Assembly: GCA_022646745.1 (NCBI GenBank)
Contig: CP060262.1
Location: forward strand, 2,070,001-2,102,000
Source: Planctomycetales bacterium
Lineage (GTDB): Bacteria > 4484-113 > JAFGCY01
DNA length: 32,000 bases
Reading direction: 5' to 3'
In this document: piece after piece, positions 5,288 to 32,000 of the stretch
Layout of the letters: every line of letters starts with the position of its first letter
How positions within the stretch are numbered: the stretch's first letter is position 1
The notes under the pieces: generated by a model
Databases searched by the model: none
What the model saw: the letters and a program-made list of their open reading frames with translations, nothing else
Told to the model about the DNA's origin: nothing
Position numbers and translations under genes: made by a program

Positions 5288-5354
5288 TCCGAGGTGCGGC
5301 GCAAGTCGCACAATGGGAGGCCCGGTGTCAGCCGGGCAACAATCGAGAAAACAA

Positions 5355-8598: not shown

Positions 8599-8736
8599 TC
8601 AGTAGGCAGTGGTCGGTACTGAATCAGAAGCAGAATGAGAAGCAGCAGAATCTGAAGCCGCGAACTGTTCGCTGAACACCGGAATCTGCTGTTTCTGCCA
8701 ACTGCTTCTCATCCTGACCACTGGCCACTGACTACT
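8594..8736. repeat. 143-bp imperfect palindrome built from 7-nt units (GGCAGTA/GTCAGTA/GAAGCAG types)
   Basis: Left arm AGTAGTCAGTAGGCAGTGGTC (8594..8614) against right arm GACCACTGGCCACTGACTACT (8716..8736). Central perfect hairpin GCGAAC-T-GTTCGC (8660..8672). It lies between convergent stop codons. Confidence 0.8.
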
Positions 8737-8744
8737 CACAACTC

Positions 8745-10097
8745 CTAGCGGAAGCGGTAGATGCCGGCTTCCGGGTCCAGTTCCAGTTCGACCTCCAGCG
8801 GCTGGGAGCCGCCATCGTACTTCAGCGTATAGGTGAAGGTATCCGTGCCGAAGAAGTTCAGCGGGATTGTCAGCTGGCCGGCCTTGCCGGTCTTGATGCT
8901 GATTTCCTCGCCCGCCACCTGCATGCTCAGTTCGGCATCCGGAATCGGACCGGTAATGCCGATCAGGATCGCGATGATGCCGAGGCTCTGGCTGCCCGGC
9001 AGCTGCATGAAGGGCGCGGCATTCAGGGCATTGTTGGTCTCGATCCCACCACCGGCACGCAGCATGCTGAAGGGATGCTGCCAGCCGTTCAGCTCGCCGG
9101 GATTGAAGAAGCCGTTGCGCCAGAGGTTGTAGTCTGAGGCATCGACGGAATTGAGGGCGGTGGTCGGTTCACCCGGCTCGCCGTCGGGCAGCAGGTTGAC
9201 GGGCAGGGCGAACAGCAGCCGTTCACTGCCCGATGTGTCATCAAACGAGAAGTCCTGCCTGTAGACATTGCCCTGCTCGATGTAGCTCATCGTTCCCACG
9301 CTGTCATTCCACAGCCCGCCGCCTTCCGAGCCCGCTGAGTTCCACTGGATGCTGCCATTCTCGCCTGAGCCAAATCCGTCGCTGGCACTGTTCCGGAACT
9401 TGCGCCAGTCCCACAGCTCCGTATTGTTGATGTAGCCGCTGACACTGCTTGTGCCGGGGTGGGCCGCGATCAGCAGGAAGCGCACGCTGCCGTCAGCCAT
9501 GCAGTAATCCTGGCTCTGGCTGAAGCTGCGACGGAAGTTGTACTGCGCGGAGGGGTTGTGCGTGCCGTCCGCGTTGTACTGCCCGGACTCGAAGCCGTCT
9601 GTGAATATCCGGCCGCCGACCTCCCAGCGTCCGTTGCCGGGGTTGGCAATCGCGAAGAACCAGCGTGCATTGCCGCCGCTTTCCAGCCCGGCCTGCACCC
9701 ATGCCAGGTGGCCGTCATCGCCGAAGTCCACCCTGTACATCGCCCAGCCGACGATGCGCTTCTCCAGTTCGCTGTCCGGCACCTGCAGCAGCAGGTCGCT
9801 GCCATCCTGGCCAAGCACGATGTTCTTCGTGGTGACGATGTCGCTGATGCCGTCGCCGTTGACATCAGCGCTGGCGACACTGATGCTTGCATTGCGCGCA
9901 GCTGAGCTGCTCGCGAGACTGGCGACGGAGGGGATGCCGGCAGTGCTGAGGTCAGCATCGCTGACTGCCTCCACCGGGTCCGGCAGGTTGGGCTGCGGGC
10001 TGGGCTGGCCGCTGCCACCGCCGCCACCGCAGGATGCCAGCAGCATTGCCGCCAGCAGCAGCGCAAGTGTTGTTGTCATTGTTTTCGTGCCTGTCAT
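8745..10097 (-). CDS. Hypothetical lipoprotein, paralog of 10109..11443
   Basis: MTGTKTMTTTLALLLAAMLLASCGGGGGSGQP (lipobox). GAGGA RBS before the ATG at 10097; the ORF-track start at 10112 is a GTG. It shares WAxYR...FxAxANxxxGxWExGG and GIIAILIGxxGPxPD with the upstream gene. Confidence 0.75.
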   Translation of the reverse strand: MTGTKTMTTTLALLLAAMLLASCGGGGGSGQPSPQPNLPDPVEAVSDADLSTAGIPSVASLASSSAARNASISVASADVNGDGISDIVTTKNIVLGQDGSDLLLQVPDSELEKRIVGWAMYRVDFGDDGHLAWVQAGLESGGNARWFFAIANPGNGRWEVGGRIFTDGFESGQYNADGTHNPSAQYNFRRSFSQSQDYCMADGSVRFLLIAAHPGTSSVSGYINNTELWDWRKFRNSASDGFGSGENGSIQWNSAGSEGGGLWNDSVGTMSYIEQGNVYRQDFSFDDTSGSERLLFALPVNLLPDGEPGEPTTALNSVDASDYNLWRNGFFNPGELNGWQHPFSMLRAGGGIETNNALNAAPFMQLPGSQSLGIIAILIGITGPIPDAELSMQVAGEEISIKTGKAGQLTIPLNFFGTDTFTYTLKYDGGSQPLEVELELDPEAGIYRFR

Positions 10098-10108: not shown

Positions 10109-11443
10109 TCACTTCTGCACCGCCGGCAGCAGCAGGCCGACGTACTGTTCACCGAACTTCTGCACCTGCAGCTCAAACTGCAGCAGCGGGTTGGCATCAT
10201 CACCGACGCCGAATGAGTAGCTGCCTTCCTCCAGGCCATCCAGCACGATGCGCCCGCGGCTGTCCGTCACGCCGACGATCGGTGTATTGCTCAGGTCGCC
10301 CTGGATCAGGACGTATGAGACATCCGGCATCGGTCCCAGCAGTCCGATCAGGATCGCGATGATTCCGTTGGGCTCACCGTTGCCGGTGATGTCGAGCAAT
10401 GGGGCTCCGCTGACATACTTCTCAACGCCATCCACAGGCTGGGTGTAAACGTACTCATGTGCCGCGCCATTCACTGCGTTGACATCAAAGAAGTGGATGC
10501 CGGGATCGCTGTCATTGTGGTCGGTCCACTGGGAAGCCATTGCCAGCTGGTTCTCCGTATTCGTGCCAAGAGCGAGGCGCGCGCTGAAGGTCGGCGGCAT
10601 GCCGATGTTGAACCCAAGCGTGTTGGATGTGCCGTCCTTGATCAGCGAGAAGCTGTCCTCGCCCCACTGCATGCTGTACTCCTCGTCCGGGTAGTTCTCG
10701 CTGGCGGAGTCCAGGCCCGGGTAGCAGAAGCACTTGCCGAACTGGCATGACATGTTGCTGAAGTTACCGTTGCCGGGATGGCCGACCAGGATCGCGAGAT
10801 ATGAACCGCTCGGGAAGACATAGTCCTCAGACTGGCTGAAGTTGAGGGTGCCGCCGTTGTTGAAGATCCCGCCGCCACCCTGGCTGCTGTTGAACTGGCC
10901 GCCGAGTTCCCAGCCGCCCCTTGTCTGGTTGGCAACCGCATAGAACAGGCGCATGCCGGGGCGGGACTTCTGCATCTCGTACTCCAGCTTCCAGAGGTGC
11001 AGGCCGCCACCGTTGCCCGGGTCTGTGCCCGGTGCGATCCGGTAGACCGCCCAGGCCAGCACGCGGCCGGTCTCGCTGGTTTCGGCATTGACCTCCCAGC
11101 CCTTGCCGCCGCTGAGCTCGTCAAGGTTGCGGCTGGCGATCACGCTCTCCCAGCCGAGGCTGAGGTTCAGCACCAGCTGCTTGTCCTCCGGGAAGTCCAG
11201 CATCGAGGACGACTTCGAACTGATCGAGGCCAGGCTGGCGGGGTCGGGCAGGCCGGCGCCGGCGATGTCCGCCGTGCTCATTTCCTCCACCGGGTCCGGG
11301 TAGTTGGGCGTCGGGTCAGGCTGGCCGCTGCCGCTGCCGCCTCCACCACAGGCGGATATCAGTACGCTGATGAGCAGTCCAAGGGCCAGTGCAGCTGCAC
11401 GACGGGACTGGGAAGAACAGTAACGAATCCTGAGAATAGACAT
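10109..11443 (-). CDS. Hypothetical lipoprotein, paralog of 8745..10097
   Basis: AGGAGG RBS. Signal peptide and lipobox LISVLISACGGGGSGSGQP. Same domain order as the paralog. Ends in VGLLLPAVQK. Confidence 0.75.
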   Translation of the reverse strand: MSILRIRYCSSQSRRAAALALGLLISVLISACGGGGSGSGQPDPTPNYPDPVEEMSTADIAGAGLPDPASLASISSKSSSMLDFPEDKQLVLNLSLGWESVIASRNLDELSGGKGWEVNAETSETGRVLAWAVYRIAPGTDPGNGGGLHLWKLEYEMQKSRPGMRLFYAVANQTRGGWELGGQFNSSQGGGGIFNNGGTLNFSQSEDYVFPSGSYLAILVGHPGNGNFSNMSCQFGKCFCYPGLDSASENYPDEEYSMQWGEDSFSLIKDGTSNTLGFNIGMPPTFSARLALGTNTENQLAMASQWTDHNDSDPGIHFFDVNAVNGAAHEYVYTQPVDGVEKYVSGAPLLDITGNGEPNGIIAILIGLLGPMPDVSYVLIQGDLSNTPIVGVTDSRGRIVLDGLEEGSYSFGVGDDANPLLQFELQVQKFGEQYVGLLLPAVQK

Positions 11444-18502: not shown

Positions 18503-18526
18503 GTTCTAGGATCTCGGTTGTAGGGC

Positions 18527-19347
18527 GTAGCGGCGACACTCCTGTCGACGGATTGATCATAACAACGCCGACACACCAGTTGCCAAGCGCACATGCGTGC
18601 ACTTTCTTCTGTGGTATATGGCGACGGTTTTCTTGGCGCAGAGGCGCTGAGGAAAATGAGGCGCAGAGAATTCAATACTAATTCGGGCCAAGCATGATCC
18701 GTCAATTTAATGATCAGGATACCGGTTTGTAGTTGTTCACCAGGCGTTGAATTCCTTCTCGAAGGAATGGTACATGGAAGTTGATCATCAGGCCACGCTG
18801 CTTGCCTGAAAGGCGCAGGTATGTCAGCAACTGTGCCTTATGCACTGGCTCAAGTTTGTTGACAACCTTCAGTTCAAGGAAGAGCTCATTCTCGACGATC
18901 ATATCCACCCTGTAAGCCACCTCAAGCCTGACTCCCCGGTACGTCAGGGGCAATGGCGCCTCCACCTGGATTGCCATGTTTCGGTGGATCAATTCCTGGG
19001 CAAGACAGCTTTTACAGGCTGATTCCATCAGGCCGGGGCCAAGTTTCCGGTGAACTTCAATTGCCGCGCCAATCACTTCAGCAGTTAATGGATCGTGAGC
19101 TTCAATTTCATTATGCATAACGTAAGTATGGCATATTAATGTAAAGTCACAAACAAGAATTGTAAAATCTCTGCGCCTCAGAAATATCTGCGCCTCTGCG
19201 CCAAGAAAACCGTTTCGAGCCGAGTGAGTCTATCTCGAGCGAATGCGAGTCTCATAAGCAGGAAATGGAAATGGCAGCAGATCAGGAAGGAGGGGATATG
19301 GTGTCGCCGCTACGTTCATGATCCGGCGACAGGAGTGTCGCCGCTAC
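18527..19347. mobile_element. Cassette bounded by nested inverted repeats, carrying the GxxExxY gene (possibly mobile or IVS-like)
   Basis: Outer IR is a perfect 21-mer, GTAGCGGCGACACTCCTGTCG at 18527..18547, with its reverse complement at 19327..19347. Inner IR is 18625..18669 against 19168..19212, with 23 + 12 identical end bases out of 45. The interior is lower in GC than the flanks. Confidence 0.45.
18714..19118 (-). CDS. GxxExxY protein (PD-(D/E)XK-like; the family often annotated as 23S rRNA intervening-sequence protein)
   Basis: AEVIGAAIEVHRKLGPGLMESAC..CLAQEL....V..E..LPLTYRG....AYRVDMIVENELFLELK fits the family pattern, including the G..E..Y region and the D..(V/I)E.K nuclease-like motif. 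Confidence 0.8.
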   Translation of the reverse strand: MHNEIEAHDPLTAEVIGAAIEVHRKLGPGLMESACKSCLAQELIHRNMAIQVEAPLPLTYRGVRLEVAYRVDMIVENELFLELKVVNKLEPVHKAQLLTYLRLSGKQRGLMINFHVPFLREGIQRLVNNYKPVS

Positions 19348-21397
19348 GTCGTTTTAAATATTCCCACCCGTTGCCAATCGCGATTGCCAGCACGCACCAG
19401 ATCAGGCCGGTCGCCGCTCCGAGGCTGAGGCCGAGCAATACGCGGGTGACCGTCAGTTCCAGCGGGGTGTGCAGGTGGCAGAAGGTGTTGAGGATGCTGA
19501 TCTGGCCCAACAGAGCGCCGATGCCGAGCATCACGGAAACACGTGTGCGCCAGGCGATTGACAACAGGAACAGCATCAGCAGCGGATGGCCGATCAGTTC
19601 CTTGGTGCGCGGGCGCACGCCGAAACTCTGCTCCAGACCCTCGCGGAACAGGTTCTCGATGGACAGCACTCCCAGCAGGGAGTCGTTGCCAGAGCGCAGC
19701 AGCACCACGCCGATGATGCCCATCGCGATCAGGATGAAGGCCACGTCGCCGTAGCGGATCGGGGACTGCCACAGGGTGGAAAAGCGTTGCCAGTAGCCGA
19801 CGAGGCGGTTCTCGGCGACCTGCCAGGCGTCGGCCAGCGTCTCGGCCTGCCAGCCCCAGGCGGCGAACAGCAGCACCGGCAGGGCCATGGACAGGGTCAC
19901 ACCGCGGAATTCAGACAGCTTGAGGATGCCCTCAGCGCTGGCCAGCGTGCCGTGGATGATCACTCCGCCGGCAATCGAGAACAGGCTGGCAACGATCAGC
20001 CCGAGCAGCGCAATGAAGATCCGCCGCGGACAGAAGCGCTTGCAGGAAAGCCGCGTTGTCAGGTACATGTTGACATGCATCGCCAGCCAGAAGCCGACCA
20101 GCGGGAAGGTGGTGGCCGCCAGCAGCAGCAGGATGTCGCGGGCCGCATTGCTGAATGAAGCAGCCCCGGCAGCCAGCAGTCCGGCAGCCAGCAGGCCGAT
20201 GAAGATCGGCAGTGGAATGGACTCACGGCCGGGGAAGGCCAGCAGGTAGATCAGCAGCAGGATGCCCGGCAGCCAGGCTGCTACCCAGATGCCTCCCTTC
20301 AAATCTGGCATCACGGACTGCAGCGCCATCGGTTTGCTGGCAATCGTGAAGCCCTCCGCCTGCAGTTCGCTGGCAAGGGTCTGGAAGTACTTCCGGTTCA
20401 GCTCCAGCAGGCGCTGCACGTAACCAGTATCACCGGCGCTGCCGCTGTTGAGTTGCCTGCCCCGGATGAAGGGCCGCACATACAGCACGCGCATGCTGCG
20501 CTCATCCACCGCGCGCAGGTACCTGGCAACGGCCCCGGCGATGTCGTAGTTGTCCATTTCCTCCGGTGGGATGCTGTGCAGGCGCGCCAGATGGATCTTC
20601 CCGTCGCTGCCGGTCATCCGCCGGGCCAGGCCGCCGCCGCCATCCTGCTCGTCAAATTCCACCCAGCAGAATGTCTGGCCATTGCGCTTGATCGCATTCG
20701 CCATTTCATCCAGCCGGCCGGGGTAGCCGAGCACGGTCGGGCCCTGGAACAGCACCAGGGGCTGCTCCGCGATGAAGCCCATCGTTTCCTGCAGGCCGTT
20801 GTCACCGAGGAACTCCGAGCCACCGGGACGCAGGATCAGCGATGCTCCATGCAGCGCGGCCGCATCCTGCACACTCTGGAACCAGGCCACCGGCAGCAGG
20901 CGCAGGTCCTCCTCCGGCATCGCCGGGAACTGCACGACCAGGCTTTCGTAGCCGCTGGCGAAACGTGCCACACGGCGATACGGATACCCGTGGCGGCTTG
21001 CCCCGCGTGCAATGTCAGCGCTGTAACGTTCATCCGTCACTTCAAAGGCGGGAGCCCCCGTTGCCAGTTCCGCCGGCGCGAAGATCCCGCTGTCCAGCAG
21101 GCTGCCGACGGTTTCCTCACCGTAGCAGAGCTGTGCGCCGGGCAGGGCCGCCAGCAGCTGCCAGGGTTGCTCACTGTCCTCCGGATAGGAGATGGATCCG
21201 CCGGAGGCATCCGGCAGGGAGGCCAAGGCCTGCCAGTCCACCAGCACCGCGACATCCTTGTAGCTCCTGTCCAGCACGCTGCGGCTCATGCAGAAGATCA
21301 CACTGCCAATGGCGGCAACAGCGGTGAACATCAGCGCGATGCCCAGCAGGTTCCTCCTGCTGATCATCATGCCATGCCTGTCCTCGCTCACTTCCAT
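19316..21397 (-). CDS. Large polytopic membrane protein: N-terminal anchor, ~330-aa extracytoplasmic domain, and a multi-TM C-terminal half (possibly DUF5693-like)
   Basis: Hydrophobic segments are visible throughout the C-terminal half (WVAAWLPGILLLIYLLAF, LLAAGLLAAGAA, VAFILIAMGIIGVVLL and others). The start is uncertain (21397 or 21370). The last ~10 codons and the stop lie inside the right outer IR of the GxxExxY cassette. The DUF5693 label is from memory only. Confidence 0.6.
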   Translation of the reverse strand: MEVSEDRHGMMISRRNLLGIALMFTAVAAIGSVIFCMSRSVLDRSYKDVAVLVDWQALASLPDASGGSISYPEDSEQPWQLLAALPGAQLCYGEETVGSLLDSGIFAPAELATGAPAFEVTDERYSADIARGASRHGYPYRRVARFASGYESLVVQFPAMPEEDLRLLPVAWFQSVQDAAALHGASLILRPGGSEFLGDNGLQETMGFIAEQPLVLFQGPTVLGYPGRLDEMANAIKRNGQTFCWVEFDEQDGGGGLARRMTGSDGKIHLARLHSIPPEEMDNYDIAGAVARYLRAVDERSMRVLYVRPFIRGRQLNSGSAGDTGYVQRLLELNRKYFQTLASELQAEGFTIASKPMALQSVMPDLKGGIWVAAWLPGILLLIYLLAFPGRESIPLPIFIGLLAAGLLAAGAASFSNAARDILLLLAATTFPLVGFWLAMHVNMYLTTRLSCKRFCPRRIFIALLGLIVASLFSIAGGVIIHGTLASAEGILKLSEFRGVTLSMALPVLLFAAWGWQAETLADAWQVAENRLVGYWQRFSTLWQSPIRYGDVAFILIAMGIIGVVLLRSGNDSLLGVLSIENLFREGLEQSFGVRPRTKELIGHPLLMLFLLSIAWRTRVSVMLGIGALLGQISILNTFCHLHTPLELTVTRVLLGLSLGAATGLIWCVLAIAIGNGWEYLKRRSGDTPVAGS

Positions 21398-22753: not shown

Positions 22754-24603
22754 CAGTTCACTGTGATCTGGTAGTTGTCAATGTCCGCCTCGGCCACGGA
22801 GAACACATCCGTGTTGGCCTGCGGGTTGATCTGTTCATCGGTGTAGAAGTCGACCTCCATCTGCACCGCGATCGGGTTGAGCAGCTGGTCACGCACCTCG
22901 CCCAGCTGGTCCTCGTTGTCAAGCAGGTTGATGCCGGCATCGCAGGTGAAGAACTGCACGGTGAAGTCCTCCGGGCGCTGCTCCGCCAGGTCGTAGAACA
23001 CGTTCGGGTCGATCGTCAGCGAGATCGCGTTCTGCGTGAACTGGCTGCCGACGTACCACGCGTAGGTATTGCTAAGGATGTCCGGCAGGGTGTCGGTCCA
23101 GTAACGCTCGGCGGTGGTGTAGTTGCTCTTGCCGAGCCCGTAGAAGATCGAGATCGAGTTGCCGCCGTCCTCCAGCGAGGAGTGCGGCACGATCAGCTCG
23201 TCACGGCTGAGGTTGTCAACCGGCGCGACCTCGATGCGTGTCGGTTGCAGGCCCGTCAGGTATGTGATGATGTCACCCTCCCAGGTGAACACGCTGTCAC
23301 CGCCGCCCTCCGGCGTCTCGCGCCCGCTGCGCTGGATGTAGAGCGTCTGGTCGAGGTTGTCCGGGTCACCGGTCACGAGGATGATGTCGGAGGAGTTGTC
23401 ATTGCCGGTCTCGTCCGCCAGGCAGTAGGTCGGCACGTTGTTGCCGGTGCTGAAGGCGACCGGCGTGGCCGCCAGTGTGCCGGCGCTGTCCGTCAGCCAG
23501 GCCCCGGCGCTGCCCGTGCCGTCGGCATTCTGCCAGCAGGCCAGCACCGCCTCGCGCGAGAGGTAGCCGTTGCCAATCGAAGCGCTGAAGCATTCACCGG
23601 GCACGTCGAGCGTGCTGCGCAGGCTGATAGTTCCGTCATCGGCCACGTCCAGCACGCGCACCATCCCGTCGGCTGCACCGGTGCCGCTTTCCGCGATCGC
23701 CAGGCTGTCGGTGCCCTGCTCGAGGATGCCGTGCTGCAGGCTGATCGCGCGGTCCGCCACGGTGATGCTGTCGGTCGCGGTGAATGTGCCATCCGCATTG
23801 CCCAGCAGCACCTGCACGGAGCGCACCCCGCCGCTTTCGCCGATCAGCGCGATGTCACTGATCGTGTCATTGTTGAATTCCTGCATGATGCTGTCCACCA
23901 GCACCTCGATCCCGAGCGGCTGGTCCGCCAGCGCGGTGAACTCGGCATTGCCATTGCCCTGCAGCACGCGGATGAAGGGCGCGGTGCCCGCATTGCCGGC
24001 ATCCAGCACCACGACATCGCGGTTGCCATCTGCATCGAAGTCGTAGTTGTGGCAGCGGAAGGGCCGCACGCCGTCGTTGATGTCGCGCACCGGGCGGAAG
24101 TAGATTGGCTCCAGCAGGTTGTCCTGCACGGCCACGCTTTCAATCAGCTGCGTCACGCCGTCCTCGGCGCAGGTCACCACGATGTCGCCGAAGCCATTGC
24201 CATCGGCATCGAAGGTGGTGGTGCAGGTCGGGCCGTCGCCGGTGCCGATCACGGTCGGGCCGCGCGGGATCTGCTTCGTGAACAGCTGCGTGCCGCCAGT
24301 CTCCGGGTGGAAGCCGATGTACAGCTCCCAGTTCAGCGCGCGGTCCTCGTTGGAGATCACGTCGATCGGACGGTCCACCGCACTGATGCTCGGCGCCTTG
24401 CTGAAGTTGAAGACGGTGTAGTACCAGTAGTCCGGGCTGAAGGAATTGCCGCGCACGCTCCAGATGATGTTCACCTCATCGGGATAGGGCACGATGTCCA
24501 GGCCGGAGTTGGCGTCATGCGCGCAACCGCCGGGGATGAGCATCGCCAGCACGGCGGCGAGCGCCAGGCTGCGGCTGGTCAGTGTTAAGCAGATGCGTGG
24601 CAT
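22753..24603 (-). CDS. FG-GAP/VCBS-repeat lipoprotein
   Basis: Start MPRICLTLTSRSLALAAVLAMLIPGGC (lipobox). Repeats FDADGNGFGDIVV, YDFDADGNRDVVVLD and NNDTISDIALIG. The ORF-track start at 24672 is an extension. Confidence 0.75.
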   Translation of the reverse strand: MPRICLTLTSRSLALAAVLAMLIPGGCAHDANSGLDIVPYPDEVNIIWSVRGNSFSPDYWYYTVFNFSKAPSISAVDRPIDVISNEDRALNWELYIGFHPETGGTQLFTKQIPRGPTVIGTGDGPTCTTTFDADGNGFGDIVVTCAEDGVTQLIESVAVQDNLLEPIYFRPVRDINDGVRPFRCHNYDFDADGNRDVVVLDAGNAGTAPFIRVLQGNGNAEFTALADQPLGIEVLVDSIMQEFNNDTISDIALIGESGGVRSVQVLLGNADGTFTATDSITVADRAISLQHGILEQGTDSLAIAESGTGAADGMVRVLDVADDGTISLRSTLDVPGECFSASIGNGYLSREAVLACWQNADGTGSAGAWLTDSAGTLAATPVAFSTGNNVPTYCLADETGNDNSSDIILVTGDPDNLDQTLYIQRSGRETPEGGGDSVFTWEGDIITYLTGLQPTRIEVAPVDNLSRDELIVPHSSLEDGGNSISIFYGLGKSNYTTAERYWTDTLPDILSNTYAWYVGSQFTQNAISLTIDPNVFYDLAEQRPEDFTVQFFTCDAGINLLDNEDQLGEVRDQLLNPIAVQMEVDFYTDEQINPQANTDVFSVAEADIDNYQITVN

Positions 24604-24671
24604 GCTGCGACTATTATAGTGATGGCCATACCTCATATATATGCAGAGAGTGCATCGGGCAGGTCTGTTCA

Positions 24672-25802
24672 ATGTTAAACAGCACGCAAGCGGCGGGGCA
24701 GGGGGGCCGGCTCGGCTTTGCGGACTGGCTCACGCGGGTCTGCGGCCGCAGCACTGCCACGGCGAAATCCTACGAACGCGATGCGGCGGCCTATGTGGAC
24801 TGGTCCGAGGGGCAGGGGCTGGCGCTCAGGCAGGCGCTGAACCGGGCGCAGCTCGGGCTGTACCTGATGGAGCGGATGGACGAGCGGCGGCGCTGGGCCG
24901 GCGAGCAGCAGAAGCTCGGGGCGCGCAGTGCGGCACGCATCGTCTCAGCGCTGAGGATGTACCAGGCCTGGCTGCGCTTCAACGGCGAGCTGGATGGCGC
25001 AGACGGCTTCGACCCGGAGCCGCCGAAGTACAGCCGCCGCCTGCCGGACTACCACAACACGGACGAAATGCAGGCGCTGGTCAGTGCCTGGGATGGCGAG
25101 CGCGGTCCGCTGGCGCTGCGCAATGCGGCGATGCTGCACCTGTTGTACGCCACCGGGATCCGCGCCAGCGAGCTGTGCGGGCTCAACATCGGCGATATCG
25201 AGCCGCGCGCGCGGCTGGTGCGGGTGCGGGGCAAGGGCAACCGCGAGCGCGTCGTGCCGTATGGCGCTAAGGCGGCGGCAGCGCTGGAGCAGTGGCTGAG
25301 CAGCGGGAGACCGCTGCTCGGGGATCAGGGACCTGGGACCAGGGACCAGACAGCTGATTCCGGGGATCGGGGGTCGGGTTTCGGGGATCCGCAGAGCTCT
25401 CAGTCTGACTCTCGCCAGCGCTCTGCCGAAACCGGAAACCGGAAACCCGCGACCCGCTCCGCCGAAACCGGAAACCCGGATACCGGTATGCGGAAACCCG
25501 AAACCGGAAACCCGAAACCGGACGCATTGTTCCTGAATCACCGGGGCAGCCGCCTGACCCGCCGCGGCCTGCATGACGTGGTGGACAAGTCAGCGCTGAA
25601 GGCCGGCATCCTGAAGTCCGTCTCCAGCCACAAGCTGCGCCATGCCTGCGCCACGCACCTCTTGGAGGGCGGCGCGGACGTCCGCCTGGTGCAGGAACTG
25701 CTGGGCCACCAGAGCCTGGCGACCACCCAGGTCTATACGCAGGTCACCCGCACCCAACTGCTCGACGCCTTCGACAAGGCGCATCCGCGGGCGAAGAAGT
25801 AA
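24672..25802 (+). CDS. XerC/XerD-family tyrosine recombinase carrying a ~68-codon low-complexity insertion
   Basis: ATGIRASELCGLNIGDI, VRVRGKGNRERVVP, HKLRHACATHLLEGGADVRLVQELLGHQSLATTQVYTQV. The insertion sits between GRPLL and ALFLNHRG, where E. coli XerD has only a few residues. Confidence 0.85.
   Translation: MLNSTQAAGQGGRLGFADWLTRVCGRSTATAKSYERDAAAYVDWSEGQGLALRQALNRAQLGLYLMERMDERRRWAGEQQKLGARSAARIVSALRMYQAWLRFNGELDGADGFDPEPPKYSRRLPDYHNTDEMQALVSAWDGERGPLALRNAAMLHLLYATGIRASELCGLNIGDIEPRARLVRVRGKGNRERVVPYGAKAAAALEQWLSSGRPLLGDQGPGTRDQTADSGDRGSGFGDPQSSQSDSRQRSAETGNRKPATRSAETGNPDTGMRKPETGNPKPDALFLNHRGSRLTRRGLHDVVDKSALKAGILKSVSSHKLRHACATHLLEGGADVRLVQELLGHQSLATTQVYTQVTRTQLLDAFDKAHPRAKK
25320..25523 (+). 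repeat. In-frame heptamer-repeat / hairpin element inside the recombinase gene
   Basis: GGGACCW units, GGGGATC units, the core GGTTTCGGGGATCCGCAGAGC..GCTCTGCCGAAACC, then GAAACCS units. It is homologous at the DNA level to 28830..28918. Confidence 0.8.
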
Positions 25803-25849: not shown

Positions 25850-25867
25850 GTCAGAGGCGAGGTGTGC

Positions 25868-26914
25868 ATGTCAGGCAGCAAGTTCACGTTCATAGATCTG
25901 TTCGCGGGTATCGGCGGCTTCCGCTTAGCGCTGGAGAAGCATGGCGGCAAATGCCTGTTCACGAGCGAGTGGGACAAGTACGCCCAGCAGACCTATGAAG
26001 CCTGGTATGGCGACAAGCCTCATGGCGACATAACGAAGATCGACGCCGCAGACATTCCGGATCACGACATTCTCTGCGCCGGATTTCCCTGTCAGCCCTT
26101 CTCTCTGGCAGGCGTTTCAAAGAAGAACAGCCTCGGGCGCAGCCACGGATTTGACGACGAGAAGCAAGGCAACCTGTTCTTCGAGATCATGCGCATAGTG
26201 GAGGCCAAGCGACCACCCGTGCTGTTCCTTGAGAACGTCAAGAACCTCAAGAGCCATGACAAGGGCAATACCTGGAAGGTCATTGAGGAACATCTGATCG
26301 CTGCCAATTACACACCCTTCAGCAGAATCATCGATGCGAAATACTGGGTTCCGCAACACCGGGAACGGATCTTCATCGTCTGTTTTGACAACGAGCGTTT
26401 CGGCATGGACCCCGGGTTCGAGTTCCCTGAGGAACCTTCCGAGCCTGCAATGAAGTTCGGGGATATTCTGGAGAAAGGCGTAGATCCGAAGTACATCCTT
26501 TCCGATCATCTCTGGCAGTACCTGCAGGATTACGCCGACAAGCACAGGGCGGCGGGCAACGGCTTCGGATTCGGAATTGCTGATCCCAAGGGCATCTCAC
26601 GCACGATCAGCGCTAGGTATCACAAGGATGGATCAGAGATCCTGATCGGTCGAGGCAAGGGAAAGAACCCCCGCCGACTGACTCCCAGAGAGGCCTGCCG
26701 CCTGATGGGATTCCCGGATGACAAGCCTCAGGTTGTATCTGATACACAGGCATATCGACAATTTGGCAACGCGGTTGTTCCGCTTGCGGTGGAGCATGTG
26801 CTGATGGCAATTCTGCCTGTATTACGGAAAGCGACCAGAAAGAACCAGAAAATATCAAGAAGCAATGCAAAAGCCAAGACTGTCAAGGGAGCTCTTAAGC
26901 CTGTACAATTGTAA
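25868..26914 (+). CDS. dcm: DNA (cytosine-5) methyltransferase
   Basis: Motif I FIDLFAGIGGF, motif IV GFPCQPFS, motif VI-like LFLENVKNL, and C-terminal QFGNAV. GAGGCGAGG RBS. The ORF-track start at 25862 is a GTG two codons upstream. Confidence 0.9.
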   Translation: MSGSKFTFIDLFAGIGGFRLALEKHGGKCLFTSEWDKYAQQTYEAWYGDKPHGDITKIDAADIPDHDILCAGFPCQPFSLAGVSKKNSLGRSHGFDDEKQGNLFFEIMRIVEAKRPPVLFLENVKNLKSHDKGNTWKVIEEHLIAANYTPFSRIIDAKYWVPQHRERIFIVCFDNERFGMDPGFEFPEEPSEPAMKFGDILEKGVDPKYILSDHLWQYLQDYADKHRAAGNGFGFGIADPKGISRTISARYHKDGSEILIGRGKGKNPRRLTPREACRLMGFPDDKPQVVSDTQAYRQFGNAVVPLAVEHVLMAILPVLRKATRKNQKISRSNAKAKTVKGALKPVQL

Positions 26915-26916
26915 GC

Positions 26917-28107
26917 ATGAATAAATATTCATGGCAGCATATTGTCAGGCAATGCGCAGAATCGCGTTGTGCCCTTTTGAAGATAATCAGTCCAAATGAC
27001 GCTGGCATTACCGGCACCCACCAGTGCGGTTTCTATCTTCCCAAATCAGTCTGGCAACACTTCACTGGGATTTCTCCTGAGAAGGACACGCTGAAGAAGG
27101 AAGATCTCGAGATAACCTGGCCGGATGGACTAGTAACGGATTCCGTGATCACCTGGTATGGTCAGAAAACCAGAAGCGAGTACAGGCTTACAAAGTTCGG
27201 ACGAGGTTTCCCCTGGCTAAGGGATGAATATGTAGGCAACCTGTTGGTACTGATCTTCACAGATTTCGGTAAAGCACATGCACACGTGATCGGCGATGAC
27301 ACTCTTGAAGCAAAGGTGTTGAGTGCGCTCGGGGTAGAGTTGCATTCAAACTGGGCACTGTTCGTTGGCCAGCCCATTTCTATTGATAGTCCGGCGGAGT
27401 GCATTCAGAAGAAGCAGATTGAGTACGCGGACCTTTTCGACAAATTCCCCATGGCACGAAAAATGTCAGATCTAGCAGCAGACATTCTGGAATCTTGCTC
27501 CGATCCTGATTACATCAACAGGCCGGACAAGGCATTGCTGGATCTCATGACATTGGAATACGAATTGTTCAAGAAGATTGAGAACAGACTTGTTGGCGAC
27601 ATTTCACATGACGGTGATACGGACGCTTTCATTGAAGCAGTGCTTCCCCTTATTCAGAGACGAAAAGCCAGAGCAGGAAAGTCGCTGGAAAATCATGTGG
27701 CGAGACTTCTGCGAGCAAATGCCGTCAGCTTTGAGGAACAGGCAAAGCGGATAAAGGGAAAGCCAGACGTGGTAGTGCCGGAAGAATCCTACTATTTCAG
27801 CCGAGGATTCGATCCAGGGTCTTTCCTGGTTTTGGCAATCAAGCGTACATGCAAGGACCGTTGGAGACAGGTTACCGAAGAAGCTCCCAAAATGGATGTC
27901 CGGTATCTGCTGACAATGCAGGAGGGAATCAGTTCCAACCAGCTTCTGGACATTCATAATGCAGGAATCAGATTGGTGGTTCCAAAGCAGCTTCATCGAC
28001 TATATCCGAAAGTTGATGAAGGAAACCCAATCTCAGTGTATGACTTCATTGAGGAATGTCTGAGGATCAGCAATGCTCATGATCCAGGCCAGATGAAGTT
28101 GTTATGA
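26917..28107 (+). CDS. EcoRII-like type IIE restriction endonuclease
   Basis: N-terminal LLKIISPNDAGITGTHQCGFYLPK resembles the EcoRII B3-like effector domain. C-terminal RRKARAGKSLENHVARLL...GKPDVVVP...AIKRTCKDRWRQV resembles the EcoRII catalytic domain. It sits between a C5-methyltransferase gene and vsr. Size of 396 aa is close to EcoRII. Confidence 0.65.
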   Translation: MNKYSWQHIVRQCAESRCALLKIISPNDAGITGTHQCGFYLPKSVWQHFTGISPEKDTLKKEDLEITWPDGLVTDSVITWYGQKTRSEYRLTKFGRGFPWLRDEYVGNLLVLIFTDFGKAHAHVIGDDTLEAKVLSALGVELHSNWALFVGQPISIDSPAECIQKKQIEYADLFDKFPMARKMSDLAADILESCSDPDYINRPDKALLDLMTLEYELFKKIENRLVGDISHDGDTDAFIEAVLPLIQRRKARAGKSLENHVARLLRANAVSFEEQAKRIKGKPDVVVPEESYYFSRGFDPGSFLVLAIKRTCKDRWRQVTEEAPKMDVRYLLTMQEGISSNQLLDIHNAGIRLVVPKQLHRLYPKVDEGNPISVYDFIEECLRISNAHDPGQMKLL

Positions 28108-28508
28108 CTCCAACTACTGAATCCCGCTCCCGCAACATGGCGGCGATCAAGGGCAAGGACACCAAGCCTGAAATGCTGGTCCGGCGGATGCTGCATGGGA
28201 TGGGATTCAGATACTCACTGCACAGGAAGGGACTGCCAGGCAGGCCGGATATCGTGCTCACCCGTCATGGCAAGATCGTGTTGGTCAACGGCTGTTTCTG
28301 GCATATGCACAGTTGCAGGTATGGGCAGGTCAAACCCAGGAACAACGCGGAGTTCTGGGAAAACAAGCGGCAGACCAACCGTGAGCGGGACAGACGCAAC
28401 CGCCGGGACCTGAAAGCCTTGGGATGGAAGGTGCTTACTGTATGGGAATGCCAGACGCGTGACCCGAGGAAGTTGGAGCGCATCCTGCGGAAGTTCATGG
28501 ATAGCTGA
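28104..28508 (+). CDS. vsr: Very short patch repair endonuclease
   Basis: SRNMAAIKGKDTKPEMLVRRMLHGMGFRYSLH...LPGRPDIVL...VNGCFWHMH...NAEFWENKRQTNRERD...GWKVLTVWEC is a typical Vsr. ATGA overlap with the endonuclease gene. Confidence 0.9.
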   Translation: MTPTTESRSRNMAAIKGKDTKPEMLVRRMLHGMGFRYSLHRKGLPGRPDIVLTRHGKIVLVNGCFWHMHSCRYGQVKPRNNAEFWENKRQTNRERDRRNRRDLKALGWKVLTVWECQTRDPRKLERILRKFMDS

Positions 28509-28511
28509 ACT

Positions 28512-28605
28512 CTGAAAGCAGAGAGCAGTAAGCAGAAACTCACGAGCTGAAAACGTAATGCTGGAAGAAGTGGTCTGCTCGCTGCTATCAGCTTCCTGCT
28601 TACAG
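28512..28605. repeat. Heptamer-unit imperfect palindrome (GAAAGCA/GAGAGCA/GTAAGCA types) between the vsr and holB stops
   Basis: Left arm CTGAAAGCAGAGAGCAGTAAGCAG (28512..28535) against the reverse complement of 28582..28605, 18 of 24 matches by hand. The holB TAA stop (28600..28602) lies in the right arm. Confidence 0.7.
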
Positions 28606-29979
28606 CGAGGCCTCAAACGCCATCTGGGCCAGCTCGCGGTCCACGTTGCCGCTGATGCGCCTGCGCAGCAGGGCCAGCTTAGCCATGTAGGTGGGGTCGC
28701 CCCAGGGACCAGGGACCTGGGACCGGGGATCAGCATAACGGGTATCGGGTTTCCGGTTTCCGGTTTCGGCATACCGGGTGTCGGGTTTCGGGATTCGGGT
28801 TTCGGCATACCGGGTTTCGGGTTTCGGGTTTCCGGTTTCGGCAGAGCGCTGGCGTGGATCTGATTGAGGCCTCTGCGGACCCCCGAAACCAGATCCCCGA
28901 TCCCCGAGGCTTGTCTGCGGAGCCCCGAGCCCCGAGCCCCGAGCCCCGTCCTCCCAGTCGTCCATATTTATTATTCCGGTGTCGGGTGTCGGGTTTCGGG
29001 TTTCGGCATATCGGGTTGCAGGTTTCGGGTTTCGGGTTTCAGCAGAGCGGTTCTGCGGGTCCCCGTTCCCCGATCCCTGTTCCCTGTTCCCCGTATGCAG
29101 CAGCCACCAGCTGGCGCGGTCATAGGCGCTCACCAGCGCCTGGCGCGTAAGCTCATTCTGCCGCGCCTTCGGCAGCGCCTTCTCCAGCTCGGCCTCCTCC
29201 ATCCCGTGGTCGGCCTGTTCCTTCTCCCACAGCAGCGCATGCTCAAAGCCGGCCGCATCCGCCGCCGCCTCCAGCACCCCGCTGCGCCGCATGATGGCCT
29301 CGGCCAGCACGGTCAGCGCACGCCGCCAGGCCTTGTTCCCGCCGAGCGCCAGGCTGTCCACATAGCGTCCGCCGCCCAGCAGCGCCCCTTCACTGGCAGA
29401 CTGCGCATCCAGCCCACTGGCCGCCAGTGCCGCCGCCAGCTCCTCTGAGCCCAGCGGTGACAGCGTGATCTTCTGCCCACGGCTGTGGATCGTCGGCAGG
29501 AGCAGCTCCGGGCGGTCCGTGGTCAGCAGGAACACAGTCTGCGCCGGGGCCTCCTCGAACAGCTTCAGCAGGCGGTTGCCGCTTTCCTCGTTCAGGTGGT
29601 GCGCATTGTCGATCATGAACACGCGGTGGCTCAGCAGGTTCGGCTTGTACAGCGCCGTGGCGAGCCCGCCATGCTCCTCGTCCAGCTGCTTTACCGAGAC
29701 GTCCTGCCCGCGCGGACGCACTGTGACATACTCCGGCTGCTCACCGGCAGCGATCGAGCGGCAGGCGTAGCATTCACCGCAGAAGGACAGCGGCTCCGAG
29801 GCCGGACGTGCACCGGTGCAGCACAGGGCCCGGGCCACGATGGTGGCGAGCGTGGTCTTGCCCAGCCCGCGCTGCCCGAGCAGCAGGAATGTGCCGCTCA
29901 GCCGCCCGCGTTCGATGTAGCGCGTGAGCAGGGAGCGCGCACGCTGCTGGCCGACGAACTCGGAGGCGGATGCAAGCAC
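28600..29979 (-). CDS. holB: DNA polymerase III subunit delta' carrying a ~131-codon low-complexity insertion near the C-terminus
   Basis: LLLGQRGLGKTT P-loop, Zn-module-like CGECYACRSI, VFMIDNAHHLN, TIHSRGQ (SRC-like). GTG start at 29979 with no RBS. On the coding strand, TATAAT (29991..29986) ends 6 nt before the GTG, so the mRNA may be leaderless. The start is uncertain. Confidence 0.85.
   Translation of the reverse strand: MLASASEFVGQQRARSLLTRYIERGRLSGTFLLLGQRGLGKTTLATIVARALCCTGARPASEPLSFCGECYACRSIAAGEQPEYVTVRPRGQDVSVKQLDEEHGGLATALYKPNLLSHRVFMIDNAHHLNEESGNRLLKLFEEAPAQTVFLLTTDRPELLLPTIHSRGQKITLSPLGSEELAAALAASGLDAQSASEGALLGGGRYVDSLALGGNKAWRRALTVLAEAIMRRSGVLEAAADAAGFEHALLWEKEQADHGMEEAELEKALPKARQNELTRQALVSAYDRASWWLLHTGNREQGSGNGDPQNRSAETRNPKPATRYAETRNPTPDTGIINMDDWEDGARGSGLGAPQTSLGDRGSGFGGPQRPQSDPRQRSAETGNPKPETRYAETRIPKPDTRYAETGNRKPDTRYADPRSQVPGPWGDPTYMAKLALLRRRISGNVDRELAQMAFEASL
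28699..29091 (-). repeat. Two tandem in-frame copies of the heptamer-repeat / hairpin element inside holB
   Basis: In coding sense the order is: GGGAACA units, a GCAGA..CTCTGC core, GAAACCC units, the AT-rich junction AATAATAAATATG, GGGGCTC x4, GGGGATC units, the core, a long GAAACCS run, then GGTCCCW units. Confidence 0.8.
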
Positions 29980-30127
29980 GGCTCGATTATAGGGGACAGG
30001 CTGCAGCCTGCATGGTGCAGGGTAGGAGCTGGGTCATGGTTAACGGGGTGCAGTTCATTCTTTACATGTGCAAATTGAAACAAAAACCCTGTAAGCACAG
30101 AAATAAGCCAAATTTGCAAAATCAAGG

Positions 30128-30133
30128 TATAAT
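30128..30133 (+). promoter_or_regulatory. Candidate -10 box (TATAAT) giving a ~140-nt leader for the RRM protein gene
   Basis: Perfect TATAAT in the AT-richer 296-nt intergenic region. The -35 is weak. Confidence 0.3.
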
Positions 30134-30275
30134 CGCCCGAGATGTCGCCGTTCGCGGCCGTTCAGCATGAGATTAGCCATTTGGCCTTCGCAAGTTCACA
30201 AACTGCCTGACCCGAATCGCTGTCCCCAAGCTCCGTAGTACATCGACCAAATATTTTTTTCCTGGAGATTCAGCG

Positions 30276-30608
30276 ATGAATATCTATGTTGGCAACCTTG
30301 ACTTCAAGACCACTGAGAACGAGCTTCGTGAAGCTTTCGCCGTCCACGGTTCCGTGGACAGCTGCCGCATCATCACCGACAAGATGACCGGCCGCCCGAA
30401 GGGCTTCGCCTTCATCGAGATGGAGGATGCCGGTGCCCGCGCCGCGATCGCAGCCCTCGACGGCAGCCAGCTTGGCAGCCGCACCATCAAGGTGAACGAG
30501 AGCCAGCCGCGTGAGGACCGTCCTCGTGGCGGCGGCGGTGGCCGTGGCGGCTACGGCGGCGGCGGCGACCGTGGCTACGGCGGCGGTGGCGGCGGCGGTC
30601 GCTGGTAA
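30276..30608 (+). CDS. RRM-type RNA-binding protein with a glycine/arginine-rich tail
   Basis: RNP2 IYVGNL and RNP1 KGFAFIEM. C-terminal RGGGGGRGGYGGGGDRGYGGGGGGGRW. GGAGA RBS. Confidence 0.9.
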   Translation: MNIYVGNLDFKTTENELREAFAVHGSVDSCRIITDKMTGRPKGFAFIEMEDAGARAAIAALDGSQLGSRTIKVNESQPREDRPRGGGGGRGGYGGGGDRGYGGGGGGGRW

Positions 30609-30657
30609 ACCGGCAACCGCAGGGCCGGCATATGCCGGCACTCAAGCAAGGAATCAA

Positions 30658-30686
30658 GCGGGCGGGGGAAACCCCGCCCTTTTTGT
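30658..30686 (+). terminator. Rho-independent terminator
   Basis: GGCGGGG-GAAA-CCCCGCC followed by CTTTTTG. Confidence 0.75.
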
Positions 30687-30694
30687 TAGCTTGA

Positions 30695-30895
30695 AGGGAA
30701 CAGGTTGCAGGTTGCAGGAATAGCAATGAGTAATGAAGAGTGAGCAATGAGTCTTACCTGCAGCGAGGTTACCTCGAATAGGCTCAGGCTCATTGCTTAT
30801 AACTCATACTTCATTGCTTTCCTGACCACTGCCTACTGCCCACTGATTACTGCCACTCCGAGCTCCACCCTCCAAACTCCAACCTATACTTACTG
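30695..30895. repeat. Composite heptamer-unit array (GCAGGTT, GCAATGA/GTAATGA, then NNCACTG/CTCCNNN types)
   Basis: Arms 30723..30751 and 30789..30817 are inverted (21 of 29 by hand). 30820..30856 shares CCTGACCACTG with 8713..8723. 30858..30885 is an inverted copy of 5466..5493. Confidence 0.75.
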
Positions 30896-30897
30896 CC

Positions 30898-31554
30898 ATG
30901 CGCCTGCGCCACTGGGTCTGCGGACCGCTTGACAACAACATCTACCTGCTGGAGGACGAGGCGGCCGGCCGCTGCGTGCTGTTCGACCCCGGCATCGACA
31001 TCGGCCCGGTGTTCCAGCACATTGACGACAATGGCCTCGAAGTCGAGCGCATCCTGCTCACGCATGCGCACTTCGACCACATCTTCGGCCTGGCCGAGGC
31101 CAAGCGGCGCTACAACTGCCCGATCCACATGCATCCGGATGACGAGGAGGTGCGCGCGCGCTTCCTGACGATCTGCGAGAACTGGGGCTTCCCCGGCGCG
31201 GACGCACCCCCTGAGATTGACGAACCGCTCAGCCACGGGCAGCGCCTGCAGCTGCTAGGCACGTCGTGCGAGGTGCGCCACACGCCGGGGCATGCCCCGG
31301 GCCAGGTGGCCTTTGTGTTTGACAACTTCGCGATCGTCGGCGACACGCTGTTCCAGCGCAGCATCGGGCGCTACGACCTGCCGGGCAGCGACCCGCAGGC
31401 GCTCGTCAACTCGATCATGGAGCAGCTCTACAGCCTGCCGGACGAGACCGTCGTCTACCCCGGGCACGGCGGCTTCACCACGATCGGCGAGGAGCGGCGC
31501 TTCAATCCTTACGTCGGCGAAGGCGCGCGCTTCCGGCTGCGCGAGGACGACTAG
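30898..31554 (+). CDS. MBL-fold metallo-hydrolase (glyoxalase II-like)
   Basis: LLTHAHFDHIFG metal motif, HTPGHAPG, GDTLF, PGHG. No obvious RBS. Confidence 0.85.
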   Translation: MRLRHWVCGPLDNNIYLLEDEAAGRCVLFDPGIDIGPVFQHIDDNGLEVERILLTHAHFDHIFGLAEAKRRYNCPIHMHPDDEEVRARFLTICENWGFPGADAPPEIDEPLSHGQRLQLLGTSCEVRHTPGHAPGQVAFVFDNFAIVGDTLFQRSIGRYDLPGSDPQALVNSIMEQLYSLPDETVVYPGHGGFTTIGEERRFNPYVGEGARFRLREDD

Positions 31555-32000
31555 CCGGCGGCACCGCTGCCGGTGCTGTCCTCACAGCGTCCGCCGAGCT
31601 GCTTCGCGAGGAAGCGGTCCGCGCGATGGTACCAGTCGAGGCGGTTCTGCGGCCGGGCGAAGCCATGGCCCTCGTCCTCGTAGCAGACGTACTCCACCTC
31701 GAGCCCTTTTTCGCGCATGCTGTCAACGATCTGCTCGCTCTCCGGACGCTTGACCCGCGGGTCGTTGGCACCCTGCGCGATCAGCAGCGGGACGCGGATC
31801 CTGTCAACGTAGTTGAACGGGCTGATTGAGCGGATGAACTCCAGCTCGGCCCGGTCCTCTTCGCTGTAGTCCGCCTTGTCCTTCAGCGTGCCGTCGGCAT
31901 TGCGCGGAATCACGCCCACGCGGCGGTCCATCACGCGGCGGAAGCTCTCCCAGTAGGGCGGGATGCTGTTGAGGAAGGTTTCCATGTTGCTCGGGCCGAC
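31551..32000 (-). CDS. S9 family (prolyl oligopeptidase-type) serine peptidase, C-terminal part; the gene continues past the right edge
   Basis: The frame stays open upstream of the listed ATG to base 32000 (..VGPSNMETFLNSIPPYW). LLIAQGANDPRV (Asp) and YEDEGHGF (His) belong to the catalytic triad region. Its stop overlaps the MBL stop in CTAG (31551..31554). Confidence 0.8.
   Translation of the reverse strand, partial: VGPSNMETFLNSIPPYWESFRRVMDRRVGVIPRNADGTLKDKADYSEEDRAELEFIRSISPFNYVDRIRVPLLIAQGANDPRVKRPESEQIVDSMREKGLEVEYVCYEDEGHGFARPQNRLDWYHRADRFLAKQLGGRCEDSTGSGAAG

Follow-up and report, generated by a model that had tools for sequence, protein, structure and literature searches.

How two conserved neighbouring genes come to carry, in the same sense and reading frame, closely similar stretches of repeat-built DNA is the question raised by a 32,000-nucleotide (nt) segment of the genome of a Planctomycetales bacterium (GenBank assembly GCA_022646745.1, contig CP060262.1, positions 2,070,001 to 2,102,000 of the forward strand; hereafter the window, whose coordinates are used throughout unless a relative is named). 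In this segment holB, which encodes the delta-prime (δ′) subunit of DNA polymerase III, and xer, which encodes a Xer-type tyrosine recombinase (Xer), each contain a large insert of heptanucleotide units, and a preliminary description made from the letters alone had taken these inserts for copies of one element shared between unrelated genes. Our analysis leads us to an explanation that we regard as probable rather than secure, namely that the inserts are locus-confined compound heptanucleotide microsatellites, translated as disordered linkers and spread by local copying. The features concerned are the following (aa, amino acids).

24582-25802, plus strand: Xer-type tyrosine recombinase host gene (Pfam Phage_integrase and SAM-like domain; XerD 1A0P, 9e-40).
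25320-25523, plus strand: Xer insert, consisting of module A preceded by (GGGACCW)x4, with about 66 extra codons (25320-25517), delimited by the XerD alignment and the arrays.
25389-25433, plus strand: core of the Xer copy (pattern match; codon phase 0).
28600-29979, minus strand: holB (DNA polymerase III δ′) host gene, 459 aa (Pfam DNA_pol3_delta2, 6e-33; orthologue alignment).
28690-29094, minus strand: whole holB insert, about 135 extra codons (aa 296-430) relative to insert-free orthologues of 330-360 aa.
28978-29092, minus strand: holB arm 1, a short module A with GGGRAMC heptamers, a CCGCAGA-ACC-GCTCTGC mini-hairpin and GAAACCC heptamers.
29035-29058, minus strand: core of holB copy 1.
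28945-28977, minus strand: conserved motif GIINMDDWEDG, between arms 1 and 2.
28699-28955, minus strand: holB arm 2, a long module A with (GGGGCTC)x4, a 42-nt subunit, a CCGCAGAG-loop-CGCTCTGC core, GAAACC heptamers and terminal GGTCCCW.
28834-28878, minus strand: core of holB copy 2, a GCAGAG/CTCTGC inverted repeat with a 24-nt loop (pattern match).

Each insert lies in frame in a loop at the surface of its host, a conserved protein that is otherwise intact, as judged from the orthologue and XerD alignments and from AlphaFold2. The search for holB orthologues returned about 60 close orthologues of 330-360 aa without the insert and 8 of 406-489 aa that carry it at the same site (54-81% identity to the query in the search table), the latter with insert lengths that vary and with a frame that is nevertheless read through in every case. 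The roughly 131 extra codons that had been counted by eye are real, amounting to about 135 by this comparison, and the insert peptides quoted at that time are correct (the inserts encode, among others, SAETGNPKPETR and GIINMDDWEDGAR). The holB insert occupies the loop ahead of the last two helices of the C-terminal domain, bordered by ...AYDRASWWLL on one side and YMAKLAxLRxRIxGNVDRELAQ on the other, and in the AlphaFold2 model, built on the orthologue alignment, the predicted local distance difference test score (pLDDT) is below 50 over residues 301-420 and confident on both flanks. In the recombinase, which is identical to P0107 and for which NCBI sets the start at 24672 (as in P0107), 66 residues stand in place of a five-residue loop at XerD 198-204 in the alignment to E. 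coli XerD (1A0P); the Pfam Phage_integrase domain is broken into two stretches, and past the insert the catalytic C-terminal region is intact, its XerD-like HxxR and Tyr region aligning with 1A0P.

The unit common to both inserts, module A, is made up of G-rich heptamers, CCGCAGAG, a loop of either 3 or 24 nt, CGCTCTGC and GAAACC heptamers, and its three copies share one anatomy on the coding strands, with GGGGATC, GGGGCTC, GGGAACA or GGGACCW as G-rich units, CCGCAGA(G) ahead of the loop, and GAAACC(C/G) heptamers after CGCTCTGC. The G-rich units form runs of four, namely (GGGGCTC)x4, (GGGACCW)x4 and GGGGATC GGGGGTC GGGTTTC GGGGATC, and their flavours in the two holB copies are those given in the preliminary description. 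The GAAACC(C/G) heptamers alternate with GGTATGC units to produce a 36-nt superperiod, which in arm 2 runs for 3.1 copies (28733-28843, 89% match). Terminal GGTCCCW heptamers are found only in holB copy 2 among the three copies (28702-28733); they are the inverse of the GGGACCW units of the Xer insert (25321-25349), as had been proposed, but these terminal inverted arrays seem not to behave like transposon ends and look instead like the outer rungs of a heptamer "ladder" hairpin. Likewise, both tandem holB copies exist, whereas the AT-rich junction said to separate them is the conserved stretch GIINMDDWEDG, set between variable arms.

The three copies are related as DNA. Positions 25361-25522 match the reverse complement of 28745-28906 at 132/162 nt (81%), and an identical 28-mer, CGCCAGCGCTCTGCCGAAACCGGAAACC, which had also been noticed before, lies at 25413-25440 (plus) and 28827-28854 (minus). 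The alignment first offered in support was 13 nt out of register, with only 29/89 matches as given; in the true register, 25362-25450 against the reverse complement of 28817-28905, 77 of 89 positions agree. The similarity is not confined to the GAAACC repeats: the non-repetitive 24-nt loop, compared between Xer and holB copy 2 at a fixed register between identical flanks, agrees at 17/24 positions, a score attained by 2 of 62,557 background 24-mers in the window, and the core pattern has three matches in the window and none in 100 shuffles. Given the overall identity, the 28-mer and the loop, a common DNA origin of the three copies, as opposed to convergent protein evolution, can be regarded as established on the sequence comparison. 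What is not supported is the part of the same claim that spoke of unrelated genes and of transposition, since the two hosts are convergent neighbours.

In the window, in L009 (the metagenome-assembled genome AC1.30) and in the relatives L035 and L036, which are the genomes with both genes on a recovered contig, xer and holB are convergent and 2.5-4.5 kb apart. Synteny is conserved in the outgroup L041 (holB 57% identical), where the two stop codons are only 17 nt apart (intergenic spacer at 11038-11056), no islet separates the genes, and holB (345 aa) and Xer (319 aa) have the short loops QSAVPPPG and VSGHSGQ in place of inserts. The comparison shows that the inserts arose in the ancestor of one clade, the outgroup having the gene pair without them. 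Because the genes are convergent, their copies of the module face each other on the chromosome as inverted repeats, and an inverted local duplication yields the same sense in both.

The common orientation and frame reported for the two hosts hold for all three CCGCAGA cores, each of which is in codon phase 0 of its host gene and read in the same sense. In the arrays, three heptamers in a run spell all three frames of the unit (ETRNPKP), so that a shared frame is informative for the core only. Across 15 arms from six genomes, the frame in use contains no stop in any arm and is the most hydrophilic of the six in 14 (grand average of hydropathy, GRAVY, -1.0 to -1.9; hydrophobic residues 2-14%), and one alternative sense frame is interrupted by stops in each of the three copies of the window. 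To account for the shared frame it is enough to assume selection for one that is open and soluble, which fits the earlier suggestion that one tolerated frame is selected. All ten orthologous inserts are in frame with length differences that are multiples of three, and the higher-order periods of 21, 36 and 42 nt keep that frame.

Within the holB insert, G[IM]INMD[DHN][WY] is the sole conserved stretch in all 8 insert-bearing orthologues; AlphaFold2 predicts a short helix there (339-346) at low confidence. The insert is thus best seen as a single conserved motif, GIINMDDWEDG, with a hypervariable arm on either side, and the motif is probably the functional part, with the arms as tolerated spacers. 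The Xer inserts are without a conserved motif.

To follow the change of insert content, we compared the Xer and holB arms of the window and its relatives by a matrix of pairwise local alignment scores. Orthologous module A copies are alike (231 between the Xer arms of the window and L009; 222 between arm 2 of the window and of L035), and so are paralogous ones (186 between Xer and arm 2 of the window; 220 between arm 2 of the window and Xer of L009). In L036 and L040 the holB arms carry a genome-specific module and resemble each other (arm 1 with arm 2, 175 and 105, respectively), not their orthologues; the L036 Xer insert also carries the L036 module, with scores of 92 (against arm 1) and 74. 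Arm 1 of the window is nearest to arm 2 of the window (109, as against 75 to Xer). At the arm 1 site L035, L009, L036 and L037 hold instead a hairpin module, module B (GGCAGCCGGACATCCCGGG...CCGGCTGCC), and since four relatives do so, the module A copy in arm 1 is specific to the window's lineage. The arm 1 difference between the window and L035 is a replacement, not an insertion, and lies between a shared GGGAAC array and a conserved GGAATAAT... motif.

Turnover of the same kind is apparent in smaller pieces. A 42-nt (14-codon) subunit, CCGCAGACAAGYCC followed by GGGGATC GGGKATC KGGTTTC GGGGRT, is present once in holB arm 2 of the window and twice in the L009 Xer insert, and is missing from the window's Xer insert and from holB arm 2 of L035 and L009. 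The window and L035 differ in arm 2 length by 78 nt (42 + 36) and have unrelated Xer inserts (score 20), with flanking coding DNA that is 90-93% identical. Insert content is a mosaic in which unit numbers, subunits and whole modules vary between orthologues, with arm lengths from 37 to 113 residues and without a discrete consensus element.

Copies beyond the two genes were sought widely. A six-frame translation of module A against 5.8 billion proteins found only holB and Xer of the clade, one likely spurious array ORF (open reading frame) and one DnaE-like fragment, and the other modules of the relatives (B, D, and the L040 and L035 types) found in the same collection holB and Xer of the clade only; an exhaustive phmmer search with the Xer insert, covering 1.84 billion representative proteins, brought up only the L009 Xer, besides three weak matches of low complexity. 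At the DNA level, the pattern CCGCAGAN{3,33}GCTCTGCYGAAACC had 34 loci in 185,579 species genomes, among which only that of L009, a syntenic relative, was real, and the remaining 33, each a lone match in an unrelated taxon, were rejected as due to chance. In the metagenomes of the Joint Genome Institute (JGI) a core pattern of greater tolerance had no match, a module B 21-mer had two chance matches in unrelated genes in metagenomes, and a scan of viral contigs gave none; exact-pattern scans of this sort miss diverged copies, as the first scan did the L009 Xer copy. Searching about 130 kb of related loci with 16 arms (blastn-short) revealed, outside the inserts, only two short heptamer arrays in spacers beside holB. 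An Rfam scan of the window at the gathering threshold had no match, and a literature search for heptamer repeats in Planctomycetes or Armatimonadetes returned nothing relevant. On these searches the modules appear confined to one locus, and their dispersal is not supported.

We propose that the inserts would be compound heptamer microsatellites residing in one surface loop each of holB and its convergent neighbour xer and translated as hydrophilic, disordered linkers, each arm having G-rich units (of the GGGGNNC type, with four G-runs) on one side of a small palindromic core and C-rich units (GAAACCC, GGTCCCW) on the other, being able on paper to fold as a period-7 ladder hairpin and carrying G-quadruplex motifs. 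They would turn over rapidly through slippage by 21, 36 or 42 nt at a time, which preserves the frame, and modules would be copied from one holB arm to the other, these being direct repeats at a distance of about 200 bp, as well as between holB and xer, where they are inverted repeats separated by 2.5-4.5 kb. The copying would proceed through gene conversion or through template switching during replication, with the shared heptamer arrays as primers. An inverted copy in convergent genes would keep its sense, and selection retaining only open, hydrophilic frames would account for the shared frame.

Several points weigh against this proposal. The turnover is visible as a pattern, and it is from such patterns, not from direct observation, that we infer gene conversion or template switching. 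The 24-nt loops group by gene (22/24 between Xer of the window and of L009 and 23/24 between arm 2 of the window and of L035, as against 17/24 between genes), so that the module A core would have been inherited vertically since before the genomes split, with exchange affecting the arrays and the module content and not the loop. All arms of the six genomes fold on paper as a period-7 ladder hairpin, but the stability of these hairpins is modest over dinucleotide shuffles (DNA z = -1.3 to -2.2). Flavour-specific complementarity of the arrays (covariation) was rejected, a swap of 5′ and 3′ halves between genomes having given no diagonal signal, because a G-rich half will pair with a C-rich half of any flavour. 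Other parts of the source genome may hold copies that are non-coding or have diverged, the coverage being that of the protein and DNA collections, the window and the 130 kb of related loci. The proposal also offers no reason for the restriction to the xer/holB locus; an account based on a dif site or the terminus was set aside, given the 17-nt spacer of the outgroup and a GC skew that is uninformative over 32 kb.

A bolder and, in our judgement, unlikely idea is that heptamer ladder hairpins form a distinct class of self-propagating DNA, which would spread without a transposase by short-range, fold-back or template-switch copying, settle and be translated in tolerant loops of essential genes and, in δ′, have been co-opted as flexible tethers of the new conserved motif INMDDW. 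A hint that such a class could be wider than the clade comes from a soil-metagenome contig (L045), in which a DnaE-like gene has the ladder architecture both upstream of and inside its ORF; the architecture, though not the modules seen in the clade of the window, thus exists outside it.

The contig itself holds (GGGGYTC)n...(GARCCCC)n hairpin arrays at 640-830 and 1120-1310, upstream of and in frame in a DnaE-like ORF of 424 aa that matches PHP, HHH_6 and OB-fold and has no polymerase-core match, with a bAvd/23S-IVP-like gene upstream.

That the inserts are instead a small non-autonomous mobile hairpin element, comparable to miniature inverted-repeat transposable elements (MITEs), repetitive extragenic palindromic (REP) sequences or Rickettsia palindromic elements (RPEs), and survive in ORFs where they happen to lie in frame in a tolerant loop, we hold to be distinctly unlikely. 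The three copies of a module with a palindromic core and inverted terminal heptamer arrays, in two genes and one frame, would suit such an element, as would the nesting of modules (a GC palindrome interrupts module B in L009 holB), the array in the unrelated DnaE-like gene of the soil contig, and the GGGGGTCGGGTTTC and (GAAACCY)n arrays that bracket a HicA cassette upstream of holB in L036. These resemblances have to be set against a host range that, across over 5 billion proteins and the scans of genomes, metagenomes and viral DNA, comprises only two adjacent genes of one clade, and against the related DNA in which no copy lies outside the inserts; that the only two hosts should be neighbours would be very unlikely under random insertion. 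The insert borders, compared with the outgroup, present neither sharp element ends nor a visible direct duplication of flanking host sequence as a target site, and the arm 1 difference between the window and L035 is, as noted, a replacement. As to the mobilising enzyme for which the preliminary description had advised a search, Pfam identifies neither a transposase nor a REP-associated tyrosine transposase (RAYT) among the 18 large ORFs of the window.

Comparably low is the probability we assign to selection on nucleic-acid structure, under which hairpins or G-quadruplexes of the inserts, in DNA or mRNA, would serve as a transcription barrier, terminator, stabiliser or translation pause near the 3′ ends of the genes and the peptides would be by-products. 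Six of the seven G-quadruplex (G4) motifs of the window fall in the two inserts (Markov expectation, 1.5 per window), and the polarity from a G-rich 5′ to a C-rich 3′ half is kept, together with ladder folding, in every arm of the six genomes despite differing unit flavours. RNA also folds into ladder hairpins, with z = -2.8 and -2.2; even so, the energy excess over shuffles is small, a strong thermodynamic hairpin signal was rejected on the modest DNA and RNA z-scores, and the swap result speaks against flavour-specific pairing. The 17 nt between the ancestral stop codons would have left no room for a terminator, and Rehm et al. 2015 (PMC4692102) describe four-unit heptamer G4 repeats that lie close to genes in Xanthomonas and Nostoc; here, in contrast, the inserts lie 100-280 nt inside the genes and not at their ends, and their sequences are fully replaced between close relatives.

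Quite improbable, finally, is the possibility that the repeat-encoded peptide is itself a selected linker or interaction region and that one frame is kept for this reason, a reading that overlaps with the tolerated spacer of our own proposal and differs from it only in the strength of selection. Every arm is read in an open frame, which in 14 of 15 is the most hydrophilic one, the conserved INMDDW between the arms would need spacers for its exposure, and the inserts persist in both genes throughout the clade; yet the arm sequences are unconserved, with orthologous arms swapped for unrelated modules at 7-10% flank divergence, arm length varies from 37 to 113 residues, and the Xer inserts have no conserved motif. 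Independent convergent expansion of microsatellites in two loops, with no shared DNA origin, is extremely improbable: other heptamer flavours elsewhere in the window (8587-8745, 28514-28538 and 30701-30885) do suggest a genome prone to 7-nt slippage, but the loop-match statistic and the identical 28-mer refute it, and the 42-nt subunit is common to the two genes.

Microsatellites confined to one locus and copied locally, the explanation that we prefer, set these inserts apart from the repeat families that they resemble. The RPEs are said to have been described by Ogata and colleagues in 2000 as selfish palindromic repeats inserted in frame in protein-coding genes. In both cases DNA that can form a hairpin, about 100-250 nt long, lies in frame in loops at the protein surface and is translated, with the host protein intact and the same frame across hosts. 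RPEs are multi-copy, dispersed in many unlinked genes and spacers, and have a discrete consensus; here there are two adjacent hosts and a mosaic of heptamer arrays with modules that differ between close relatives, and neither multiple dispersed copies, in the protein and DNA collections and the 130 kb of related loci, nor a discrete consensus among the orthologues was found. The small dispersed repeats (SDRs) of Nostoc and other cyanobacteria, reportedly treated by Elhai and colleagues in 2008, are said to be often nested in heptameric tandem repeats, and they share with the present modules small hairpin-like units with heptamer arrays, mutual nesting and a presence in genes without a break of frame. 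SDRs are 21-27 nt long, high-copy and genome-wide, whereas the modules described here are larger and low-copy, and their dispersal was not found.

With microsatellite-derived inserts under concerted evolution the inserts have in common hydrophilic, disordered, fast-evolving loops and a similarity that is greater within than between genomes; they are unlike ordinary inserts of that kind in that the unit, at 7 nt, is not divisible by three, the 21-, 36- and 42-nt periods maintain the frame, and two neighbouring genes share a repertoire. Phase-variable contingency loci likewise have slippage-prone repeats inside ORFs with a unit length that is not a multiple of three, but here all orthologues are in frame and the hosts are housekeeping genes, and on/off switching is not indicated. 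The units match the GGGNATC-type G4 heptamers of Xanthomonas and Nostoc (Rehm et al. 2015, PMC4692102), which are also 7-nt G-run units, about four per array and variable in number between relatives. Those repeats occur throughout the genome, for the most part between genes, and the coding strand of ORFs avoids them; cyanobacterial short tandemly repeated repetitive (STRR) heptanucleotide sequences are cited in the same source. Unlike the repeats of Xanthomonas and Nostoc, the present arrays are inside the ORFs of two essential-type genes at one locus and are kept in frame; the G-rich half is on the coding strand in both genes and is paired, across a palindromic core, with a complementary C-rich array.

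Between the two host genes lies a further feature.

25862-28508, plus strand: islet with a Dcm methylase, an EcoRII-like endonuclease and Vsr (Pfam; GC 0.49-0.53), given as context and outside the element.

The contents of this defence islet vary: Dcm, the EcoRII-like endonuclease and Vsr in the window and L036, GmrSD in L009 (1536-3266), and an RRM protein, a hypothetical protein and HNH_2 in L035 (11737-13627). The islets of the window and L036 are 74% identical, which is consistent with vertical descent. We considered the inverted copies as breakpoints for islet exchange between strains and rejected the idea, the holB and xer parts 3′ of the inserts being no closer between the window and L036 than the 5′ parts. 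Two further contigs (L038 and L039, both equal to window 28858-32000) come from different assemblies of the European Nucleotide Archive (ENA), are 100% identical to the window and both stop at 28858, where the block common to xer and holB has its edge, which suggests that the repeat, or polymorphism of the arrays, interrupted the assembly.

Other repeats surround the locus. In the window, the spacers 8583-8745, 30690-30890 and 28514-28538 (one of them between convergent genes) contain long imperfect hairpins of other 7-nt flavours, namely CAGTAGT/CTGACCA, AGCAATG/CTCATTG and CAGGTTG/CTCCAAC, and CTCCAAC and CTGACCA recur in the L035 Xer insert. Upstream of holB in L036 (1731-2395), a cassette of two ORFs, one of them for a HicA toxin (1e-7), lies between a GGGGGTCGGGTTTC and a (GAAACCY)n array, an arrangement that looks like the insertion of a toxin-antitoxin pair into an intergenic heptamer hairpin. 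In L009, three tandem 33-nt units (CTGCTACACCCTATGTCCCAGATCCTAACTTCTCGC) lie just upstream of the holB start (7340-7560), and the spacer between GmrSD and holB (3880-6130) is filled by a multi-copy repeat, one frame of which translates as ...WLLRATGPCRSQTDTPS....

Two additional observations concern the window more generally. The intergenic region that separates mnmA from a DUF5693 gene contains a unit of about 820 bp (18526-19348) with a 28-nt inverted repeat of 96% identity at its ends (18526-18553 / 19321-19348) and, further in, 49-nt inverted arrays of GGCGCAGA octamers. The unit encloses a minus-strand PD-(D/E)XK ORF (18714-19118; PDDEXK_3, 2e-35) and looks like a small inserted cassette. 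Upstream of an RRM gene (30276-30608), the region 30085-30275 has a TATAAT box and, after it, a leader about 135 nt long, which are conserved in five genomes (L035 9720-9905, L009 7570-7770, L036 1525-1720 and L040 5195-5390 being the counterparts), with 76% mean column identity and long invariant blocks, the neighbouring spacer DNA not being conserved. Its RNAalifold structure has almost no covariation and Rfam at the gathering threshold has no match to it; the leader may be cis-regulatory for the gene of this glycine-rich RNA-binding protein.

These findings provide a clean natural example of non-triplet repeats residing inside housekeeping genes, in which higher-order periods (21, 36 and 42 nt) maintain the frame and content is replaced between genomes whose flanks are still 90-93% identical. 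They also indicate that sequence common to two genes can stem from short-range copying between neighbours and not necessarily from a mobile element, a caveat for scans aimed at repeats or MITEs, and that such arrays may break short-read assemblies, two independent contigs ending exactly at the shared block. For the biology of this uncultured clade, they draw attention to INMDDW, a short conserved motif newly embedded in the δ′ subunit of its clamp loader, where it could be a new interaction site.

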